A DNA stretch of 64,000 nucleotides from Bifidobacteriaceae bacterium (GCA_031270825.1 JAISXH010000011.1:12231-76230); one strand, 5' to 3'. Shown: positions 36,997 to 59,300, counted from the first letter of the stretch. Program-made: numbers and translations. Notes: a model not told the origin generated them from the sequence alone.

Positions 36997-37082
36997 GTCC
37001 GAGTGGCGGAATAGGCAGACGCGCTAGCTTGAGGTGCTAGTGCCCTTTACGGGGCGTGGGGGTTCAAGTCCCCCCTCGGACA
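36997..37082 (+). tRNA. tRNA-Leu (anticodon GAG)
   Basis: Acceptor GTCCGAG/CTCGGAC. Anticodon stem CTAGC/GCTAG with loop TTGAGGT. Long variable arm and T-arm GGGGG-TTCAAGT-CCCCC. No encoded CCA. Confidence 0.9.
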
Positions 37083-37155
37083 CTGCAAACCAACAGGTCA
37101 GAAGGTCTCACCTAACTGGCGCCAGGCTCTGCCCGGCGGAGTCGCGGCCAAGCCT

Positions 37156-49920: not shown

Positions 49921-50307
49921 CCGGATGAGTCGGCTGGACGGCCGCGTCGGGCATCGCGCCTCTTCTTAGGGGGACGCCGGTCCCGCCGAGGAAAGTCCGG
50001 GCTCCGCAGAGCAGGGCGGTGGGCAACACCCACCCGGGGCGACCCGCGGGAAAGTGCCACAGAAATCAGACCGCCGGGGCGCCGCATGGCGCCGCGGTAA
50101 GGGTGAAACGGTGGTGTAAGAGACCACCAGCGCCCAGGGTGACCTGGGCGGCTCGGTAAACCCCGCCCGGAGCAAGGCCAGACAGGTGGCGTTCGAGGGC
50201 TGCTCGCCCGAGCCACCGGGTAGGCCGCTGGAGGCCCGCGGCAACGCAGGTCCTAGATGGATGGCCGTCTTCAATGACAGAACCCGGCTTACAGGCCGGC
50301 TCATCCG
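49921..50307 (+). ncRNA. rnpB: RNase P RNA, bacterial type A
   Basis: GAGGAAAGTCCGGGCTCC and ACAGAACCCGGCTTA universally conserved blocks. P1 pairing cggatgag...ctcatccg. Confidence 0.9.
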
Positions 50308-51387: not shown

Positions 51388-52200
51388 TTGGTGCTGGTGC
51401 CAGTGACCGACCCGGCAGACCCGCGACTGGAGCTGTATTTCCATCTCACCGACGTGTCGCTGAGAACCCGATTCGAACCGGAACGGGGCCTGTTCATGGC
51501 TGAATCGGCCCAGGTGATCGGCCGGGCCCTGGACGCGGGCGTGGAGCCCTATTCAGTGCTGATGACGCCGAAATGGGTTGAGCCATTGGACGGGCTGATC
51601 GGGCGCTTGGCGCCCGGCGTGCCGGTCTATGTCGGCGTGGACGAGTTGCTCCACCAGGTGACCGGGTTCCACGTCCACCGGGGCGCGGTGGCGGCGATGC
51701 GCCGCCCGGCCCTGCCCACCTGGGAGGTGGTGGTGGGCGGCGCGCGCCGCCTGTGTGTGATCGAAGACGTGGTCGACCACACCAACCTGGGCGCGATCTT
51801 CCGTTCGGCGGCGGTCTTGGGCGTCGATGCGGTCCTGGTGACGCCGCGCGGCGCCGATCCGCTCTACCGCCGTTCGGTCCGGGTCTCGATGGGCACGGTC
51901 TTCCAGGTCCCGTGGGCCCGCATCGATCCCTGGCCGGGCGCTTTGGTGGGGCTGAAGGGCGACGGTTGGCATGTCGCCGCCTTGGCGCCGGACGGTGACA
52001 GGTACGATGCCGTGCCCCTCGACAGATTCGCCTCCCACCTCCCGGCCCGCTTGGCTTTGCTGGTGGGAACTGAGGGCGATGGCCTGACGGCGGATGCGCT
52101 GGCGCTGGCCGATTCGGTGGTCGCCATACCGATGGCGGCGGGGGTGGACTCGCTGAATGTGGCGGCGGCATCGGCGGTGGCGTTCTGGGCCACTCGCTGA
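51388..52200 (+). CDS. TrmH/SpoU-family RNA 2'-O-methyltransferase
   Basis: NLGAIFRSAAVLGVD, LLVGTEGDGL and IPMAAGVDSLNVAAASAV motifs. Confidence 0.85.
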   Translation: MVLVPVTDPADPRLELYFHLTDVSLRTRFEPERGLFMAESAQVIGRALDAGVEPYSVLMTPKWVEPLDGLIGRLAPGVPVYVGVDELLHQVTGFHVHRGAVAAMRRPALPTWEVVVGGARRLCVIEDVVDHTNLGAIFRSAAVLGVDAVLVTPRGADPLYRRSVRVSMGTVFQVPWARIDPWPGALVGLKGDGWHVAALAPDGDRYDAVPLDRFASHLPARLALLVGTEGDGLTADALALADSVVAIPMAAGVDSLNVAAASAVAFWATR

Positions 52201-52220
52201 CCGAGCCGTTCGGGGCGCCC
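52142..52220 (+). repeat. Left copy of island-flanking direct repeat (3' end of the TrmH-family gene plus ~20 nt)
   Basis: Hand-aligns to 58051-58126 with 68 of 76 aligned positions identical and one 3-nt indel. Includes perfect runs of 15 and 21 nt. Confidence 0.85.
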
Positions 52221-52883
52221 GGGGCCAGGATCGCCCACCCGGAGCCGCGCCGCCCAAGACAAGCGCGCCGCATCCCCTCTGGCCCTGGCCGCGAAGCTCG
52301 CAATGCCAAAGTGCTGACAAGCGCAGCCCGATGTGGCCGCCCGCCCGCGCGACCTGGTGGCTAGGCATCTGCCGACGCGCCGGCGTCCTGGCCGCCTGTC
52401 AGCGATAGCGGTCCCTCATCGAAGCGACGCAGGGCAAGGGGTACCGCCTCGCTTCCCCGCGCGACGAGCGTTGACGACCCCGACCAGCGGTTTTGTACGG
52501 GCCGACCGCCTGACCAGCACCAATGCCCAAAGCCAGGCCTGCGCCGCGCGCCCTCGCGGGTGGGCGCGTCATGAGGCTGGTCGGCGCGGGGGCCGCGGCT
52601 CTGGCCGGGCTGCGGCGCGTCCTGGGGGCCCGGGCCGGTCTGCTCGACGCACCCGGGAGGCCTGTCCGTCAGCGCGATCACCGGCCTGAAACGGGCCGGT
52701 GGTCCGCGTTGGGGTAGCCTTTCGCCGGGCAGCCGGTTTGACCGGTGACGGGGGGGCGAATATTGTGTGGCAAGCTGACGGGAGCAGAAATGGCTTATCG
52801 CGTGCCTCTCCTGGCGCAAACAGGGTGCGCTCACTATTCAGGACGGATGTGAGAAGTCGATGGCAAATACGGGTATTCGCTAA

Positions 52884-52961
52884 ATGATAGTGATCGGTGC
52901 GTGCAGCGCTCTCGCGGGGATTGGCCTGTTGGTGGCACCTGCTCTGTGGCAGTGCAACTGA
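52884..52961 (+). CDS. Candidate small ORF, 25-aa hydrophobic peptide MIVIGACSALAGIGLLVAPALWQCN
   Basis: ATG..TGA read directly in the lower-GC leader of the island. No clear SD. Not in the ORF track because it is too short. Confidence 0.2.
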   Translation: MIVIGACSALAGIGLLVAPALWQCN

Positions 52962-52978
52962 CGGGCCCGGTCTCGCCG

Positions 52979-53095
52979 ATGGGGACGAAATACACCGGGA
53001 CCTATGCTGCGTCTACAGGGCCGACGAATCAGACTACTTACTTCAGGCCGGTTGGGGCACGGCACTGGTCCGGCGGCACAATGAAGACCACCTGA
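52979..53095 (+). CDS. Candidate small ORF, 38-aa Thr/Gly-rich peptide (GTG 52901 would give 64 aa)
   Basis: MGTKYTGTYAASTGPTNQTTYFRPVGARHWSGGTMKTT. The stop lies 3 nt before, and in the same frame as, the lipoprotein ATG at 53099. Confidence 0.25.
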   Translation: MGTKYTGTYAASTGPTNQTTYFRPVGARHWSGGTMKTT

Positions 53096-53098
53096 CGC

Positions 53099-53743
53099 AT
53101 GGTGGCGGCAAGAAGACGCGCCGCGCGGCCCGCGATCTTGGCCGGCCTGGCGCTGACGGCTTCGGCGCTGGCCGGCTGCGCTGGTGACGCTGGCGAGGCG
53201 CCCGCTCCGACCACCTTCGAAGGCGTTCTGGCGGAGGCGACAGAACGTGGCTATTGGGCGCTGGACAGACTCGAGGACGGCGAGGTCACCTTTGACGAGC
53301 TGGAGTGGGCGCACGACCAATGGGAGGGCTGCGTCAATCAGATCGGTTACAACGTGATCGCCCTTGATTCATGGCGCAGCCCCGTGGACGGAACCCTGGG
53401 CGGCCTCTGGTATGACTGGAACGGTCAGGAGCCGGCGCCGGATCAAGACGACCCGGTGCTGGGGGAGAAGATTGAGGCCTGCTTCGCCGACTTCGACTTG
53501 GAGCTACTGTCTTTGGCCTACTCCGTGGGCCACGAACAGGTGATGGATGAGCCGCTGCGGCAATACACGCTTGAGTGCTTGGGGGAGGCCGATTTGAAGC
53601 CAGATCCGAGCGACCAGTCCGTGCCGGACCTGATGGCGGACCCGGGCGTGGGTGAGGGCGCCTTCTACCTTGTTGAGGCTTGCGTCACCAAGGGCGTTGA
53701 GGAGCTCTATCCCGAAGTCCTACAAGTGTCAGTGGGCTACTGA
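53099..53743 (+). CDS. Acidic lipoprotein, unknown function
   Basis: Signal peptide plus lipobox LALTASALAGCAGD. Four further Cys. No recognisable family. Confidence 0.6.
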   Translation: MVAARRRAARPAILAGLALTASALAGCAGDAGEAPAPTTFEGVLAEATERGYWALDRLEDGEVTFDELEWAHDQWEGCVNQIGYNVIALDSWRSPVDGTLGGLWYDWNGQEPAPDQDDPVLGEKIEACFADFDLELLSLAYSVGHEQVMDEPLRQYTLECLGEADLKPDPSDQSVPDLMADPGVGEGAFYLVEACVTKGVEELYPEVLQVSVGY

Positions 53744-53745
53744 GA

Positions 53746-54846
53746 GTGGGTCGATTACTCCAGGGAACAGCGGTCGTCGGGCTGCTGGTATGGGTCGCGG
53801 CGCCGTTGGCGGGTTTGGCGTTGCTGGAACGCCAGGACGGTGAGGCCGTCTTCGCGGAGGTCGAGCCAGTCTTTGTGCCCGTCCAGCCGGCGCCGGACAC
53901 AGAGGTGCGCGAGGTCGGCTTAGCGTTGAATTGGTCCGATCCCGCCCAACTCGTCGCTCCGGCTTGGCAGGGAGTGGTGGATCGGGTGTTGGTGGCGCCC
54001 GGGGATCGGGTGGCGCACGGGTCGGCGTTGCTCAGCCTGGACGGGATCGAGCGCATAGCCTGGGCCACGTCGGGCGCCTTCTACCGGCAATTGGCACTGC
54101 GGGACAAAGGGCCTGATGTCGAATGGCTAAACCAGGCGCTGGCAGCCGCGGGACTGCGCCACGCCGCCGGCGCCGAGTTCACGGCCGAGACCGCGGCCGG
54201 GGTCAAAGAGTTCGCAGCGTCCATCGGGGCGCCTGCGAACAATGGAGTGTTCGACCCCGGCTGGGTGGTGTTTCTGCCGATCGCGGAATTGGTGATCAAA
54301 GAGGTGGCTGTCAGCGCCGGCTTGCCGGCGCCGCCGCCCGGATCGGTTCTGCTCCAAGCGCAAGTCCAACTGGTGTCAGCCGTCCTGATCGGCCTGGACG
54401 TCTTGGAACGCCGTGAGTCTGAAGCGAACGACCAGGCAGGCGCGGTTGATCCGGTGGCCCCCGCCGACGAGGTGTTGGCGGTGGACGAGACCTTGTTGGT
54501 GGACGGCCTAGACCTGGCGCTGAACGATGCTCGGGACGGTCTGGGGCCGCAGGCCCTGGCCACCTTAGATGGCAGGGTGCAGCCTGGTCTGGCCAGTCTG
54601 CGCGCGCAGGTGCGGCGGCCCAGCGGCGCCGATGCCGTCAGGGTGCCTACCGCTGCCGTCTTTGACTCGGGCGGCGGTTCCGCGTGCGTGGTTGTGGCGG
54701 CTGGAGCGGGTGACCCGGGCGTCGTCGAGGTCGAGTTGATCTGGGACGACTCGGGCTTCAGCGTTGTTCGCCCGCTCCTGGAGGGCGCTTTGGACGGGGC
54801 CAAGGTGCGCCTGCCCGGCGGTGGTCCGGCCGCGGTGTGCGGGTGA
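53746..54846 (+). CDS. Membrane-fusion (HlyD/MacA-like) adaptor with peptidoglycan-binding domain
   Basis: N-terminal TM segment. Barrel-sandwich-like GVVDRVLVAPGDRVAHGSALLSLD. PG_binding_1-like VEWLNQALAAAGL...TAAGVKEFAASIG. Confidence 0.68.
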   Translation: MGRLLQGTAVVGLLVWVAAPLAGLALLERQDGEAVFAEVEPVFVPVQPAPDTEVREVGLALNWSDPAQLVAPAWQGVVDRVLVAPGDRVAHGSALLSLDGIERIAWATSGAFYRQLALRDKGPDVEWLNQALAAAGLRHAAGAEFTAETAAGVKEFAASIGAPANNGVFDPGWVVFLPIAELVIKEVAVSAGLPAPPPGSVLLQAQVQLVSAVLIGLDVLERRESEANDQAGAVDPVAPADEVLAVDETLLVDGLDLALNDARDGLGPQALATLDGRVQPGLASLRAQVRRPSGADAVRVPTAAVFDSGGGSACVVVAAGAGDPGVVEVELIWDDSGFSVVRPLLEGALDGAKVRLPGGGPAAVCG

Positions 54847-55457
54847 CAGCCGTGGCGGCCGGCGTTGAAGTGGTCGGGTTGACGCATGGGTTCGAGGATC
54901 GGGTGCTGTTCGCGGACTTGTCCTGGTCGGTGCCAGGCGGGTCGATCACAGCGGTGATGGGTCCCTCAGGCGTGGGTAAGTCAACCCTGTTGGCGTTGAT
55001 CGCTGGGCACTTGACCCCATGGCAGGGGCAGATCCGAACGGCCGGAGCGGTGGAATGGATCGTCCAGTCGGTGCCTATGCTGGAGCGCCGCAGCGCGCTC
55101 GACAACGCCGCCATGGGGCTGATCGCCCAGCGCGTCAAGTGGGAAGAGGCGCGCCAGCGCGCCCAAACCGCTCTGGAAAACTTCGCGCTGGGCGCTTCGG
55201 CTGCCACGCGCGTGGCAGAATTGTCCGGCGGCGAGCGGCAACGGGTGGCCGTGGTCCGGTCGGTCTTGAGGGGCGCGCCGGTGCTACTGGCCGACGAACC
55301 GACGGCCTCACTCGACCCGGCCACCTGCGAGTCGATCTGCGACGCGCTGGTGGCCAGCGCCCGCGCCGGGGCGTCGGTGCTGGTGGCGACCCACGATCCG
55401 GCGGTCGCGGCCCGCTGCGAGAAGGTCTTGGATCTTTCGGTATGCGCTCGCGCCTGA
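54837..55457 (+). CDS. ABC transporter ATP-binding protein (MacB/LolD-like)
   Basis: Walker A GPSGVGKST, signature LSGGERQRVAVVRS, Walker B VLLADEPTASLD. GTG start overlaps the upstream stop. Confidence 0.88.
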   Translation: MRVTAVAAGVEVVGLTHGFEDRVLFADLSWSVPGGSITAVMGPSGVGKSTLLALIAGHLTPWQGQIRTAGAVEWIVQSVPMLERRSALDNAAMGLIAQRVKWEEARQRAQTALENFALGASAATRVAELSGGERQRVAVVRSVLRGAPVLLADEPTASLDPATCESICDALVASARAGASVLVATHDPAVAARCEKVLDLSVCARA

Positions 55458-56542
55458 ACCGACCGGTCCGGCCGCCGGCCGGGATCGGGGCCGCCCAAGC
55501 CGCGGCTGAGACTCTCAGGAATCTGGCGGCGGCGTTCTGGAGGGCGACTCTGACCGCTGTCGCGGCCGCTGTCTTTGGGATTGGGATTGTCACGGCGACG
55601 GTGCTAGACACATCCGCAATCGAGCGCCAGTACCTGACCGAGCGGGACAAGGGGGCCTATGTTTTCGAGGCCCGCTCTGGCAACACCGACGGCTTGGACG
55701 GCGCGCGCTGTTCGCAATTCGCGCGTGTCGACGGGACGCTGGCGGCGGGAGCCGCGCTGTCTGAGGAAACGGTGGCTCTAGCCTCGGCCCCGGGCCAAGC
55801 AATCAGACTGGTCAGAGCCACACTGGGGACGGCCCAGGTGGCCTGGCCAGGTCAGGCGGACCTGGCGCGTTCCTCGACGGTGGTGGGCCAGGATCTGGCG
55901 GAGAAGTTCGGGTTGGCCGTCGGCCAAGAGGTCGCTCTAGCCAACGGCGGAACACTGACGGTGGACGCCATCGGGGCTGGGGAGGCGCGAATTGGCGGCT
56001 ATTCCTTGGCAATCGTTGTCGCGGCGGTGCCGCGGTCCGGCGAGCGATCGGCCAGTTGTGTGATCGAAGCCCGCCCCGGCCACCAGGCGGCCATCCGGCA
56101 GGCTCTGAGCGGCTGGTTCGACCCGGCCGACAAGGTGGTCGTGTTCGAGTTGTTCGAGCGCAGCGCCGGAGCCGAGGATCCGGCGACGCGCCTGCGCGGC
56201 CGGGTGTCGGCCCGGATCGCGGCCGGGCTGGGCGCTGTTGCTCTGGTCGGGTCGTGCGCTGGGTGGTGGGCGCGGCGGCGCGATGTGTCGCTGTACAGGA
56301 TGCTCGGCGCCCGGTCATGCGACCTGCTGGCCATGGCAACGACCGAATGCCTGGTTGTTTTGGTGCTGCCAGCCATGACGGGCGCGGGTTTGGCGGTCTT
56401 CGCAATGGCGCCAGAAGGATTGGTGGCGGCGGCGGTGTCGCGCGATCTGTTGCGCTTCCTGGCGTTCGGGGCCTTGGCGCCGGTGGCGGCGGTCCTGTTG
56501 TTGGGTCGGGTGCGGCCGTGGGACGGGGTCCGCGGCGTTTGA
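55442..56542 (+). CDS. FtsX/MacB-type ABC permease
   Basis: Trimmed to ATG 55442, a 16-nt overlap with the ATPase gene. TM1, a ~200-aa extracytoplasmic domain, then three C-terminal TM segments (FtsX-like). Confidence 0.75.
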   Translation: MRSRLNRPVRPPAGIGAAQAAAETLRNLAAAFWRATLTAVAAAVFGIGIVTATVLDTSAIERQYLTERDKGAYVFEARSGNTDGLDGARCSQFARVDGTLAAGAALSEETVALASAPGQAIRLVRATLGTAQVAWPGQADLARSSTVVGQDLAEKFGLAVGQEVALANGGTLTVDAIGAGEARIGGYSLAIVVAAVPRSGERSASCVIEARPGHQAAIRQALSGWFDPADKVVVFELFERSAGAEDPATRLRGRVSARIAAGLGAVALVGSCAGWWARRRDVSLYRMLGARSCDLLAMATTECLVVLVLPAMTGAGLAVFAMAPEGLVAAAVSRDLLRFLAFGALAPVAAVLLLGRVRPWDGVRGV

Positions 56543-56759: not shown

Positions 56760-57476
56760 TTGGGTAAGTGGGGGACGCGTCCGGTAACCGCAGGTGTGGC
56801 TGTGGCCATCGCGGTGCCAAGTTACGCTGATGCCCCGCAAGGAGAGCCCGGGGCTGGTCTCGAACTCGCTCAGAATGTCGCCACCGGCACGGTCGTGGGG
56901 GCCGACCAAGTGCCGTTGCAGAGGGCTGGTCCTAGCGGGTTCTTCCCGGTCGACACGGACTGCCTCTCCTTCGACGAGTACGGCTACCAGACTTGGAGCG
57001 GCGGTTTTGCGCCGGGCGTGAGCGAGCTGGGCGACGAGTTGTCGGCCATCGTGGACGCCAACAACTCGTTCGCGGCGGGAGTGGCGATCTGTTCGAACCG
57101 TGCCGGGTTGGCGGTCTTCGTCGCGGAACGGGATCCTGAGTTGATTGCCCAGATCGACGCGGCGGCCGCGAAGCACCCTTCACTGCCAGTGTCGATCGAG
57201 GACGTCGCCGTTGGAGCCGGCACGGCCGAGGCGGTGGCCCTACGGCTGCGGGATGCGGACTTCGGCTCCACCATCACGGCTGTCGGGGTGGACGTGCACA
57301 CCGGTGGCCTGTTGGTCTCGGTCCTGCCCGAGGCCATGTCGCGGGAGGCGGACCCGGTCACGGCGGAATCGATCCACTCATATGTGCTCGCCGTGGAGGG
57401 TTTGGAGCTCCCGGTGGCGCTTGAGCCGGTCCCCGCGGGGGAGGACTCGAGCGGCCTGGCCGACTCCGCCGCATAG
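56760..57476 (+). CDS. Secreted protein, unknown function
   Basis: Signal-like N-terminus ending AVPSYA/DAP. Two segments faintly reminiscent of alpha-lytic-protease pro-domains. TTG start uncertain. Confidence 0.5.
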   Translation: MGKWGTRPVTAGVAVAIAVPSYADAPQGEPGAGLELAQNVATGTVVGADQVPLQRAGPSGFFPVDTDCLSFDEYGYQTWSGGFAPGVSELGDELSAIVDANNSFAAGVAICSNRAGLAVFVAERDPELIAQIDAAAAKHPSLPVSIEDVAVGAGTAEAVALRLRDADFGSTITAVGVDVHTGGLLVSVLPEAMSREADPVTAESIHSYVLAVEGLELPVALEPVPAGEDSSGLADSAA

Positions 57477-57510: not shown

Positions 57511-58020
57511 ATGTGGTTCAAGGTATCTAATTCGACAGGAGTGGCTTTGAAGATCAAGGGGGCGACGCGCCTGCGGACCGCAGGCTTGGCTGTGGCGGCA
57601 GCAGTCCTGGTGGCAGCGCTGATGGGATCATGTGTGGTTGGCGGCAAGACCGGCCCGGGGTCCGCCACGCCGGTCCAAAGCAGTCCGGAGGCGCCCCAAG
57701 ACGACCCGGGCGCATGCCCGGCGGAAGGCTCCGACTCACCGCTGCTGACAACGTCGATAGCGGAGGCTCACGCCGAGGACGCGCTGCCCGCCTGCGGGCC
57801 TGGTGATTCCGAGCCGAGGCCGGGAGTGCTGGGGGAGGCGCGCGTCCAGATTTACGCCACCGACGGGATCGACCTGCCTGCCGAGGTCAACCTGGAGCCG
57901 GAACTAGGCCTGACCAACCTGGCGGAGTGCCAAGAGCGACCGGGTTCGGCCACCTTCTTCGTAGACGGCCAGTGGCATATCGGCCGAAACGTGGTCTGCT
58001 CGCAGCTCGACGGCCTGTGA
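57511..58020 (+). CDS. Putative lipoprotein, unknown function
   Basis: Lipobox-like AALMGSC and four further Cys. Alternative starts at GTG 57541 or TTG 57547, after AGGAG. Confidence 0.5.
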   Translation: MWFKVSNSTGVALKIKGATRLRTAGLAVAAAVLVAALMGSCVVGGKTGPGSATPVQSSPEAPQDDPGACPAEGSDSPLLTTSIAEAHAEDALPACGPGDSEPRPGVLGEARVQIYATDGIDLPAEVNLEPELGLTNLAECQERPGSATFFVDGQWHIGRNVVCSQLDGL

Positions 58021-58050
58021 GGCGCCCAAGCCCGCGCCCGGGCCGCCGGC

Positions 58051-58142
58051 GGGTGGACTCGCTGATGGCGGCGGCATCGGCGGTGGGGGTCTGGGCCGCC
58101 GGCCGACCGAGGCGCTCGGGGCGCCCAGGCGAGCCGGCTTAG
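58051..58142 (+). pseudogene. Displaced 3' remnant of the TrmH-family gene (right copy of the direct repeat)
   Basis: Translates in frame as VDSLMAAASAVGVWAAG..., compared with the live C-terminus VDSLNVAAASAVAFWATR*. TGA is changed to CGA and the frame runs to TAG 58140-58142. Confidence 0.6.
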
Positions 58143-58163: not shown

Positions 58164-58781
58164 CTAGATCAGGCCGGCGGTGCCGAGGCGGGCGCGGGCG
58201 AAGCGAGCCGCGACGTCATCCCAGTTGACAATGTTCCAGAAAGCGGCCACGTAGTCGGCCTTGACGTTCAGGTAGTCCAGGTAGAAGGCGTGCTCCCACA
58301 TGTCGAGGACCAGCAACGGAACCAGACCGGCGGAGAGGTTGGACTGATGGTCGTAGAGCTGGTTGACCAACAGTTGGCCGGCCAGCGGCTCCCAGGTCAG
58401 GATCGCCCAGCCGGAGCCCTGGATGGAGGTGGCGGCGGCGGAGAACTGCGCCTTGAAGGCATCGAAGGAGCCGAAGGCGCCGGTGATCGCGTCCGCCAGT
58501 TCGCCCTGCGGCGCCAGCGACGAATCCGGGGTCAGGTTCTGCCAGAAGACGGAGTGATTGACGTGGCCGGCCAGGTTGAAGGCGAGGTCTTTCTCCAACT
58601 TCGGCAGGATGGCGAAACTGCCCGAATCCCGGGCGGCGGCCAACTGCTCAAGGGCGGTGTTGAGGCCGGCCACGTAGGCGGCGTGGTGCTTGTCGTGGTG
58701 CAGTTCCATGATGCGGCCGGAGATGTAGGGCTCCAGGGCGGAATAGTCGTAAGGCAGATCGGGCAAGGCATACAGAGCCAT
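58164..58781 (-). CDS. sodA: Fe/Mn superoxide dismutase
   Basis: [28 protein letters not shown] and [11 protein letters not shown]. Confidence 0.95.
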
Positions 58782-58865
58782 TGGTCCTCTTTCATTCTCG
58801 ATGAACGTGTGCTAGGTCCCTCTCATTACATCACTAGTTCGGCGGCGCCCGGTACCATTTTTGCT

Positions 58866-59300
58866 ATGACCGTTAGCGTTCCCGCATCGACCGAGATCGA
58901 AACCAGTTCCGCAAAGCCCATCAGCATCCTCGTCTACAGTGACAACGCGCGCGTCCGGGCCGAGGTGAGGGAGGACCTGGGCGACACGCTCGGGGCGCCG
59001 GCTCAGCCGATCGAGTGGACCGAGGTGGCCACCCATGAAATGGCCATGCTGTTGTGCCACGAGAGCACCTTCGACCTGGTGATCATGGACAACGAGGCGA
59101 ATCGGCTGGGCGGAGTGGGTTTGACCACCCAGATGCGCAACGAACTCGACTGGCAGCCGACGGTGCTGCTGTTGTTGGCCCGTCAGCAGGACGCTTGGCT
59201 GGGCGCTTGGTCGGGCGCCGACGCGGCTCTGCTCCAACCGATCGATCCAGTCAAGTTGGCCGCCACGGTGGCCGAGCTGGTGGGCCTGCCGCAGGGCTAA
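58866..59300 (+). CDS. Stand-alone receiver-like (CheY-fold) domain protein, atypical
   Basis: ORF 58290..59300 trimmed to ATG 58866. ISILVYSDN...[10 protein letters not shown] keeps the phospho-Asp position, but the conserved KP reads QP. Confidence 0.55.

Follow-up and report, generated by a model that had tools for sequence, protein, structure and literature searches.

A MacB/FtsX-type ABC gene cassette with a peptidoglycan-binding-like adaptor module and a conserved acidic lipoprotein in a Bifidobacteriaceae bacterium

We analyzed a 64,000-nucleotide (nt) stretch of DNA, referred to as the window, which derives from a 158.7-kb contig of a Bifidobacteriaceae metagenome-assembled genome (MAG; locus tags LBS27_; contig JAISXH010000011.1) and hence from a monoderm host, with respect to a cassette of four genes that encode an acidic lipoprotein, a membrane-fusion adaptor, an ATP-binding cassette (ABC) ATPase and a permease. 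The four open reading frames (ORFs), all on the plus strand, were found by ORF calling at 53099-56542, exactly where the initial annotation of this DNA had placed four tightly coupled genes, and recomputation gave the same spacings, which are a 2-nt gap between the lipoprotein and adaptor genes, a 10-nt overlap between the adaptor and ATPase genes and a 16-nt overlap between the ATPase and permease genes (Table 1). Homologues of each of the four genes were found in more than 20 other loci, where the gene order is conserved, indicating that the ORFs are real genes and not chance ORFs in high-GC DNA. The wide co-occurrence of the four genes in other Actinobacteria supports the initial suggestion that the module is self-contained. 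The use of the longer start codons is supported by the recurrence of the 10-nt adaptor/ATPase overlap in related loci and by the near invariance of the N-terminal adaptor residues M1, W16 and P20 across the adaptor family. Taken together, the results presented here show or strongly support that the cassette combines an ABC set of the MacB/FtsX type, a membrane-fusion adaptor carrying a PG_binding_1-like module and a conserved acidic lipoprotein, and that a variable small secreted cysteine-containing protein is the usual neighbor of the lipoprotein in related loci.

Table 1. Features located in the window, with positions counted from its first nucleotide (aa, amino acids; HMM, hidden Markov model).
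Feature	Position	Strand	Remarks
Acidic lipoprotein gene	53099-53743	+	214 aa
Adaptor gene	53746-54846	+	366 aa; GTG start
ABC ATPase gene	54837-55457	+	206 aa; GTG start
Permease gene	55442-56542	+	366 aa; ATG start within a longer mechanical ORF
Doubtful small-protein remnant	52853-53095	+	Weak HMM match; stop 3 nt before the lipoprotein ATG
Promoter-like site	52738-52766	+	TTGACC, 17-nt spacer, TATTGT; within the 875-bp spacer 5' of the lipoprotein gene
Left direct-repeat copy	52143-52225		SpoU-family methylase gene (51388-52200): its 3' end and about 25 nt beyond
Right direct-repeat copy	58050-58129		Methylase 3' end as a non-coding remnant; reads ..VDSLMAAASAVGVWAAGR..
Secreted protein, no assigned role	56760-57476	+	Inside the repeat-bounded segment, outside the conserved cassette
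Putative lipoprotein/secreted protein	57511-58020	+	LBS27_01920; 'hypothetical protein' at NCBI; outside the conserved cassette
RNase P RNA	49926-50307	+	Bacterial class A; 298 bits
tRNA-Leu(GAG)	36997-37083	+	Only tRNA, 15 kb off

The ATPase matched Pfam ABC_tran with an E-value of 9.8e-27 (94.7 bits against a cut-off of 25) and contains the complete set of elements expected of an ABC ATPase, with intact Walker A (GPSGVGKST), Q-loop, signature (LSGGERQRV), Walker B with its catalytic Glu (LLADEPT) and H-loop (ATHD). Its best NCBIfam matches were L_ocin_972_ABC, FtsE and LolD, all under their cut-offs, and the top curated match, TIGR03608 (lactococcin-972-group bacteriocin ABC), was scored at 139 bits against a cut-off of 254.85. 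Relatives of about 200 aa are well populated in Microbacterium, Sinomonas, Modestobacter, Cryobacterium and Bifidobacteriaceae MAGs, and the same contig encodes, beyond the limits of the window, a paralogous ATPase (P0033) that is 48% identical to that of the window, so that there may be a second cassette in the same genome. For the permease, a hydropathy scan indicated hydrophobic segments at residues ~37-55, 255-273, 303-321 and 336-354, with an extracytoplasmic loop of ~200 aa between the first and second transmembrane (TM) segments, which is the topology of type VII ABC permeases. At the family level, FtsX matched 9 of the 13 members (best E-value, 5e-7) and MacB_PCD 3 of the 13, and the permease family profile retrieved type VII ABC permeases alone from the PDB, namely BceB (2.7e-3), PsdB, LolF and LolC. 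Hydropathy and family profiles are hence in accord with the FtsX-type permease with a ~200-aa extracytoplasmic domain that had been proposed from the sequence, and it is strongly supported that the protein is a divergent four-TM permease of the FtsX/MacB type (type VII ABC). Two Cys residues in its outer domain, C90 and C206, are invariant.

The adaptor belongs to a family for which a full HMMER scan yielded 1023 cluster representatives at E ≤ 1e-3, the number falling to 524 at E ≤ 1e-10, and among the 150 best matches listed most are 330-400 aa long and aligned over almost their full length. An AlphaFold (AF2) model, which was built on an 81-sequence alignment and reached a predicted local distance difference test score (pLDDT) of 94.4 and a predicted template modeling score (pTM) of 0.80, consists of a TM helix (residues 2-33), strands (42-106), two helices (123-134 and 147-159), further strands (174-215), a barrel helix (217-229) and more strands. 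In a Foldseek search, the best solved matches of the model were all membrane-fusion proteins, including CusB, MexA, AcrA, BesA and MacA (structures 5nik and 9qgy for the last), with E-values of 7e-9 to 1e-4. The predicted structure contains the beta-barrel, split lipoyl and membrane-proximal domains of such proteins. The order of elements agrees with the established adaptor topology (PMC4446572) apart from the insert: the alpha-helical coiled-coil hairpin is not present, and instead the two short helices at 123-134 and 147-159, which belong to a PG_binding_1-like module, are positioned between the two lipoyl halves, that is, at the usual site of the hairpin.

The identity of this helical insert was evaluated by searching a profile of adaptor residues 112-176, derived from 40 sequences, against all PDB sequences. 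Nine of the 10 best matches were peptidoglycan-binding or wall-lytic proteins, and the matches included 5nm7 (7e-4), SleB (6tci; 8e-4), 4fet, the endolysins 7rum and phiKZ gp144, 4xxt and 4lpq, with an L,D-transpeptidase-type protein among them; this evidence is consistent but weak. Pfam PG_binding_1 matched 10 of the 40 adaptor family members, and the insert displays the pattern G-x-D-V-x-x-L-x-x-L...F-T-x-x-T-x-x-G-V-x-x-F, which is canonical for PG_binding_1. HlyD_3 and Biotin_lipoyl_2 matches also occur in members of the family. Domain searches with the adaptor and the permease of the window themselves brought up the expected families, although all below the curated cut-offs (for the adaptor, RND_mfp at 22.6 bits, in addition to a weak NCBIfam match to type_I_hlyD), and the assignments of both proteins accordingly rest on predicted structure and family-level profiles. 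From the model and the profiles, we conclude that the adaptor is, as predicted, a hairpin-less membrane-fusion protein with a PG_binding_1-like module (residues ~115-170) at the hairpin position, by which it may bind peptidoglycan. The initial description of a membrane-anchored HlyD/MacA-like adaptor carrying such a module is supported by the model, the Foldseek matches and the insert profile. A literature search for a fusion of PG_binding_1 with an adaptor of this kind found no paper, with subscription journals thinly covered, so that this is no proof of novelty.

The lipoprotein begins with MVAARRRAARPAILAGLALTASALAGC27, in which a charged start is followed by a hydrophobic stretch and the lipobox LAGC27, and thus carries the bacterial lipoprotein signature, a signal peptide with a [LVI][ASTVI][GAS]C lipobox. 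Its mature part is markedly acidic, with an isoelectric point of 4.05 and 41 Asp and Glu against 7 Lys and Arg residues, and contains four further Cys. The lipobox was found in 17 of the 18 homologues screened, its Cys column being nearly invariant, and D60, C78, G83, C128, C160 and C195 are invariant across the family, whose copies are all strongly acidic (net charge, -8 to -34). No relative of the lipoprotein was detected in Pfam, NCBIfam or the PDB, in line with the initial statement that it is of no recognizable family, and there is accordingly no match to a well-characterized family with a known substrate. Each extracytoplasmic cassette protein has an even number of conserved Cys, namely C314 and C365 in the adaptor, C90 and C206 in the permease and C78, C128, C160 and C195 in the lipoprotein, which suggests disulfide-stabilized extracytoplasmic domains that would be reliant on the actinobacterial oxidative folding system.

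The lipoprotein had also been regarded as an orphan, and this view could not be maintained. A word-indexed protein search with the lipoprotein retrieved itself and one relative of 54% identity only, the same kind of search with the adaptor retrieved the adaptor only, and a first metagenome scan with the lipoprotein alignment gave no match; the near-orphan status of the two proteins that these word-indexed searches implied was identified as a sensitivity artifact by the HMMER scan and by local HMMs. When the DNA around the closest ATPases and around the metagenome relatives of the adaptor was searched with local HMMs, a lipoprotein homologue was found to adjoin the adaptor in 18 of the 20 evaluable non-redundant loci of other Actinobacteria. 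The two remaining loci (L013 and L016) end inside the adaptor gene, so that a copy may lie downstream. The lipoprotein gene usually lies directly upstream of the adaptor gene on the same strand, and it is divergent in three loci (L003/4, L015 and L018) and lies 3' of the permease gene in one (L012). The Microbacterium phyllosphaerae proteins are labeled 'hypothetical protein' in both NCBI and UniProt. As judged from the sequences, the lipoprotein is a member of a conserved unnamed family and a regular component of the cassette. A further homologue, 39% identical, was detected at 4867-5598 of L001, which is from another Bifidobacteriaceae MAG; it has a TM anchor instead of the lipobox and lies between AEC-type transporter and ribokinase-like genes, with no ABC set within the 14.6-kb contig. 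A supposed synteny between L001 and the window via a PEPCK gene was rejected, since tblastn showed the lipoprotein alone to be shared and since the gene of the window encodes an AMP-binding enzyme.

In addition to the lipoprotein, the related loci revealed a second partner. In at least 12 of the loci that have both lipoprotein and adaptor (L003/4, L005/6, L009, L011, L012, L014, L015, L017, L018, L020, where it occurs twice, L024/25 and L027-29), the lipoprotein gene has a small-protein gene as its immediate neighbor, and in two of them, L006 and L009, the two genes overlap by 4 nt. An example of a small protein is WP_210096277 of Microbacterium phyllosphaerae, where the cassette corresponds to WP_210096277 to WP_210096281. 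The precursors are ~90-140 aa long with a typical Sec signal peptide, and the mature proteins are rich in Gly, Ser, Thr and Tyr and contain two to four Cys, most of them being mildly basic. A core type is statistically supported for L003/4, L005/6, L009, L011, L012, L014, L015, L017 and L018, with L024/25 linking in, and is characterized by a common GC...C pair and a C-terminal GG-x-H-x-(W)-G motif; the proteins of L020 (both copies) and L027-29 represent a second, unrelated type. The array at 630-4781 of L020 contains three lipoprotein paralogues, two of which are each preceded by their own small Cys protein, together with one adaptor/ATPase/permease set. Small helix-turn-helix genes lie between the lipoprotein paralogues of this array. 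In L008 and L022, the lipoprotein and the pump are kept and the small protein was undetected. For the seven loci with all five parts, the mean pairwise identity was 24.5% for the small protein, 26.9% for the permease, 28.7% for the lipoprotein, 32.2% for the adaptor and 44.4% for the ATPase. Membership in the lactococcin 972 system was considered and rejected, given that the small proteins have no Pfam Lactococcin_972 domain and that the ATPase is below the TIGR03608 cut-off. Separately, two-component genes (a HisKA_3 kinase and a GerE-type response regulator) were observed beside the cassette in L003/L004 (8135-10161) and L008 (933-1598), which hints at regulated expression.

In the window, the only candidate for a small-protein gene is the ORF immediately 5' of the lipoprotein gene. 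It ranked first among the 1311 ORFs of the window against the small-protein HMM, but with an E-value of only 0.09-0.16, it has no signal peptide, and its first start codon is a GTG at 52901. Its C-terminus, ..VGARHWSGGTMKTT, is like those of the small proteins of L015 (..GGRHHWGGAVGTT) and L012 (..YHRWGTAVGTT), which is weak evidence. A frame at 52884-52958, which overlaps this ORF, is signal-peptide-like and reads MIVIGACSALAGIGLLVAPALWQCN up to a stop; joining the two by a frameshift was rejected, as it would break the conserved Cys region of the other frame and scores as noise. On sequence grounds, 52853-53095 is possibly a decayed small gene, and it could also reflect an assembly frameshift or chance. 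A six-frame scan of the 875-bp spacer in which this region lies revealed no Pfam-detectable coding remnant, and there was no credible Rfam match in it; its promoter-like site is a consensus match only, with one such site seen against 0.3 expected.

The cassette is located on a segment of 5.9 kb that also contains the spacer and two unrelated secreted-protein genes and that is bracketed by a direct repeat of ~83 nt, interrupted by a single 3-nt indel. On the left, the repeat copy constitutes the methylase gene's functional 3' end (..GVDSLNVAAASAVAFWATR, followed by the stop), and the two copies look like an att-type insertion scar. The best ungapped part of the repeat covers 64 nt at 86% identity, and its ungapped score of 37 compares with 13.9 +/- 1.0 (maximum, 16) in 25 shuffles. 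Duplication of a gene 3' end is a classic scar of site-specific insertion. Because the methylase 3' end is duplicated at its borders, the segment is probably an old insertion, whose mobility genes were lost or never carried. The initial annotation had called the four genes the cargo of an island, and this notion gained the bracketing repeat; on the other side, searches of 37-64 kb turned up neither an integrase nor a transposase, no integrase remnant emerged when the 875-bp spacer was scanned in six frames, and no composition shift was seen, the GC fraction being 0.67-0.69 both inside and outside the segment. The chromosomal context of the cassette differs between other genomes, and an accessory, mobile cassette would fit these varying contexts as well as the paralogous ATPase on the same contig.

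The products of the two further genes in the segment (56760-57476 and 57511-58020) had no family match and no homologue among the 29 related loci, and a 41-nt repeat of 78% identity (56766-56806 and 57556-57596) is common to the stretches that encode the two signal peptides. The upstream flank comprises genes for NIF3, a CT398-type zinc-ribbon protein, an RNase H/phosphatase, RNase P RNA, a ROK kinase and the SpoU-family methylase, of which the order NIF3, zinc-ribbon protein, RNase H/phosphatase and rnpB is an ordinary actinobacterial housekeeping context. The downstream flank comprises sodA, trpD and the gene for the AMP-binding enzyme. The 24 nt after the left repeat (52223-52246) match an internal sodA stretch (58395-58418) at 22 of 24 positions, the minus strands of both reading GSGWAIL; this match is borderline above chance (~0.006, a rough estimate) and may be left over from an older methylase/sodA junction. 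Between sodA and trpD, the C-terminal part of 58290-59300 (+) corresponds to a ~140-aa product with a receiver-domain-like look, which had no Pfam match at E ≤ 1e-5.

With regard to function, we favor, tentatively and at a little less than an even chance, the reading that the four genes form a cassette conferring immunity to a small secreted protein toxin, here without the toxin gene. The small protein would be a secreted, bacteriocin-like toxin, at the membrane surface the lipoprotein would serve as its cognate binder or immunity protein, and the pump would clear the toxin that reaches the membrane, in the manner of NisI with NisFEG or of YknWXYZ against SDP. An oligomer or ring of the adaptor would sit on the outer domain of the permease, with its tip holding peptidoglycan instead of TolC or an outer-membrane duct, and the substrate, starting at the outer face of the membrane, would be pushed into the wall or through it by ATP-driven motion of the outer domain (mechanotransmission). 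The placement of the adaptor on the permease, the mechanotransmission and the wall-attached tip are all inferred from what is known of type VII ABC systems (PMC5985334, PMC5768738). In the window, where the small gene would be absent or decayed, the four genes may represent an orphan immunity or resistance cassette on the 5.9-kb segment at the methylase 3' end.

We infer the toxin and immunity roles because the lipoprotein gene adjoins a small-protein gene in most loci and because several such pairs accompany a single pump in L020. Also counted in favor of the immunity function were the linkage of lipoprotein and adaptor, the presence of at least two unrelated small-protein types in one slot, the acidity of the lipoproteins against the mostly basic character of the small proteins, the lone homologue in L001, the lactococcin-972 group as the top match of the ATPase and the precedents of NisI with NisFEG, of YknX and the other Ykn proteins and of AS-48EFGH. 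The initial annotation had listed extrusion, immunity and activation of a lipoprotein or wall enzyme as possible roles, and the small-protein neighbor, which it had missed, narrows this list toward toxin handling and immunity.

Several points weigh against this assignment. The 875 bp 5' of the lipoprotein gene contain no intact small-protein gene, and the window as a whole has no convincing copy. The small proteins diverge just slightly faster than the permease and the lipoprotein, and they had no Pfam match even at E ≤ 1-10, no Lactococcin_972 match and no PDB relative. They are Sec-exported, so that the pump is not required for their crossing of the membrane, and a non-toxic role is possible. 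The structure model of the lipoprotein, made from a two-sequence alignment, had a pLDDT of 54, which is too low for a fold search. For the pump, the window permease was scored at 13.6 bits against the FtsX (PF02687) cut-off of 25.5 and at 16.6 against the MacB_PCD (PF12704) cut-off of 27, and the window adaptor at 14.3 bits as a whole protein and 18.8 as an excised module against the PG_binding_1 (PF01471) gathering score of 23. Toxicity, binding and transport are putative for all members of the cassette.

The linkage of small-protein, lipoprotein and pump genes would also be expected if the cassette served export or wall transit, in which case the lipoprotein would act as a chaperone or receptor that captures the small protein once it has been Sec-exported and its disulfides have formed, be it a toxin, a signal or a surface protein, and the pump would push it out via the peptidoglycan-anchored adaptor, much as MacAB-TolC handles the periplasmic enterotoxin STII. 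MacB-type pumps load their substrates from the extracytoplasmic side (PMC5985334), and for a Gram-positive adaptor nanotube, delivery of substrate into the peptidoglycan layer has been suggested (PMC5768738). However, the retention of lipoprotein and pump without a detectable small protein in the window, L008 and L022, and of the lipoprotein alone in L001, is less readily accounted for by a dedicated exporter than by an immunity system, and small proteins of 7-10 kDa are expected to pass peptidoglycan unaided; we regard export as rather unlikely.

A role as a general resistance pump against foreign antimicrobial peptides or antibiotics, like Spr0693-0695 or YknXYZ, with the lipoprotein as an accessory and the small protein as a mere frequent neighbor, appears quite unlikely, because it leaves unexplained why small genes adjoin the lipoprotein genes, to the point of the 4-nt overlaps in L006 and L009, and why they form the pairs of L020. 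It nevertheless has precedents in that characterized Gram-positive MacAB-like pumps protect against LL-37 and antibiotics (PMC5768738, PMC5985334), and the two-component genes beside the cassette in L003/4 and L008 recall Bce-type modules. It is improbable that the cassette is an FtsEX-like mechanotransmitter that transports nothing and instead switches a wall-acting extracellular partner, either the lipoprotein or the small protein. FtsX-type permeases do regulate the wall hydrolases PcsB, RipC and EnvC (PMC6355983, PMC7668044), and the adaptor carries a putative wall-binding module, but a membrane-fusion adaptor is absent from known FtsEX systems, the residues that are invariant in the lipoprotein, namely one Asp, one Gly and four Cys, make up no recognizable catalytic set, and no hydrolase domain was found in any part by Pfam, NCBIfam and PDB searches. 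Finally, a Lol-like extraction or release of the acidic lipoprotein itself from the membrane is highly improbable, given that the resemblance to LolCDE, a lipoprotein-extracting MacB-type machine (LolD is among the best matches of the ATPase, and the permease profile touches LolF and LolC), consists of weak matches common to the whole superfamily, that LolCDE has no membrane-fusion adaptor, that a monoderm has no outer membrane to target and that the L001 homologue is TM-anchored and has no pump.

Extending the immunity function to the related loci, we consider it possible, though doubtful, that they represent an unrecognized actinobacterial system in which several unrelated disulfide-bonded Sec toxins and their cognate acidic lipoproteins are served by a shared, wall-docked MacB-type pump. 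If this is true, the adaptor would show directly what such adaptors do in cells without an outer membrane, that is, dock the pump to the wall. Why bacteria that lack an outer membrane keep 'periplasmic' adaptors has been asked since 2000 and is still posed in reviews (PMC5985334, PMC4446572). The present adaptor family offers a natural experiment in this respect, in which the TolC-contacting hairpin is swapped for a peptidoglycan-binding-like module and wall docking is testable with one protein, and the family, a large one of about 1000 clusters at 50% identity, is annotated almost throughout as 'hypothetical protein'. Similarly, public annotation of all parts of the cassette except the ATPase is 'hypothetical protein'. 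The partnership of the lipoprotein with a variable small protein points to a possible new class of actinobacterial protein bacteriocins and immunity proteins, and the hosts of the cassette include gut Bifidobacteriaceae and plant-associated Microbacterium. The finding overturns nothing, and it provides a handle on the role of adaptors in monoderms and a candidate toxin/immunity family.

Among known systems, YknWXYZ of Bacillus subtilis and B. amyloliquefaciens resembles the cassette in being Gram-positive and in its parts, with YknX as the adaptor, YknY as a separate ATPase, YknZ as the FtsX-type permease and a system-specific fourth envelope protein. Protection by YknXYZ is directed against SDP, a secreted toxin that is disulfide-bonded, and purified YknX binds peptidoglycan; AS-48EFGH likewise has a MacB-type permease (PMC5985334). 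YknX differs in having a prominent alpha-hairpin and no PG_binding_1 module (PMC4446572), and YknW is an integral membrane protein, not an acidic lipoprotein. No common family membership of the two systems was detected at the sequence level. The LanI and LanFEG proteins (NisI/NisFEG and SpaI/SpaFEG) are like the proposed arrangement in that a surface lipoprotein binds the toxin and cooperates in immunity with an ABC transporter that expels it from the membrane (PMC8538875). However, LanFEG transporters are not of the MacB/FtsX type and have no adaptor, their toxins are lanthipeptides, and LanI has no sequence relation and no detectable fold relation to the lipoprotein described here. The lactococcin 972 cluster is comparable to the related loci in that a Sec-dependent unmodified small protein bacteriocin is paired with an ABC system. 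Its permease is a seven-TM protein that is not known to have an adaptor. Furthermore, the bacteriocin is without cysteines (PMC8538875), whereas the small proteins of the cassette have Cys.

As for the pump, Spr0693-0694-0695, found in Streptococcus pneumoniae, is a MacAB-like Gram-positive system whose adaptor nanotube has been proposed to extend from the membrane to peptidoglycan (PMC5768738), but Spr0693 keeps the alpha-helical hairpin barrel, matches the adaptor model very weakly (E-value, 0.034) and has no lipoprotein or small-protein partner. MacAB-TolC shares with the cassette the type VII pump, the four-TM permease with a large outer domain, the N-terminally TM-anchored adaptor and the acquisition of substrate from outside the cytoplasmic membrane; in contrast, the cassette has no outer-membrane duct, the hairpin is replaced by the module, the ATPase is separate (the nucleotide-binding domain of MacB is fused) and the permease is very divergent. 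FtsEX with PcsB, RipC or EnvC has the same permease fold and mechanotransmission toward a wall-associated partner, and differs in that it has no adaptor, that its partners are peptidoglycan hydrolase regulators and that it is a housekeeping division system. BesA of Borrelia burgdorferi is a precedent for a hairpin-less membrane-fusion adaptor (PMC4446572), so that the hairpin is not universal, although in BesA, which works with a resistance-nodulation-division (RND) pump and an outer-membrane channel, the hairpin is simply missing, whereas the adaptor of the cassette has another domain there. A literature search, in which subscription journals were thinly covered, found no paper describing the three features that set the cassette apart. 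Gram-positive adaptor-bearing MacB-type pumps (YknXYZ, Spr0693-0695 and AS-48EFGH) and a hairpin-less adaptor (BesA) are already known, whereas the peptidoglycan-binding-like domain at the hairpin position, the acidic four-Cys lipoprotein family and its coupling to small secreted Cys proteins appear to be new.

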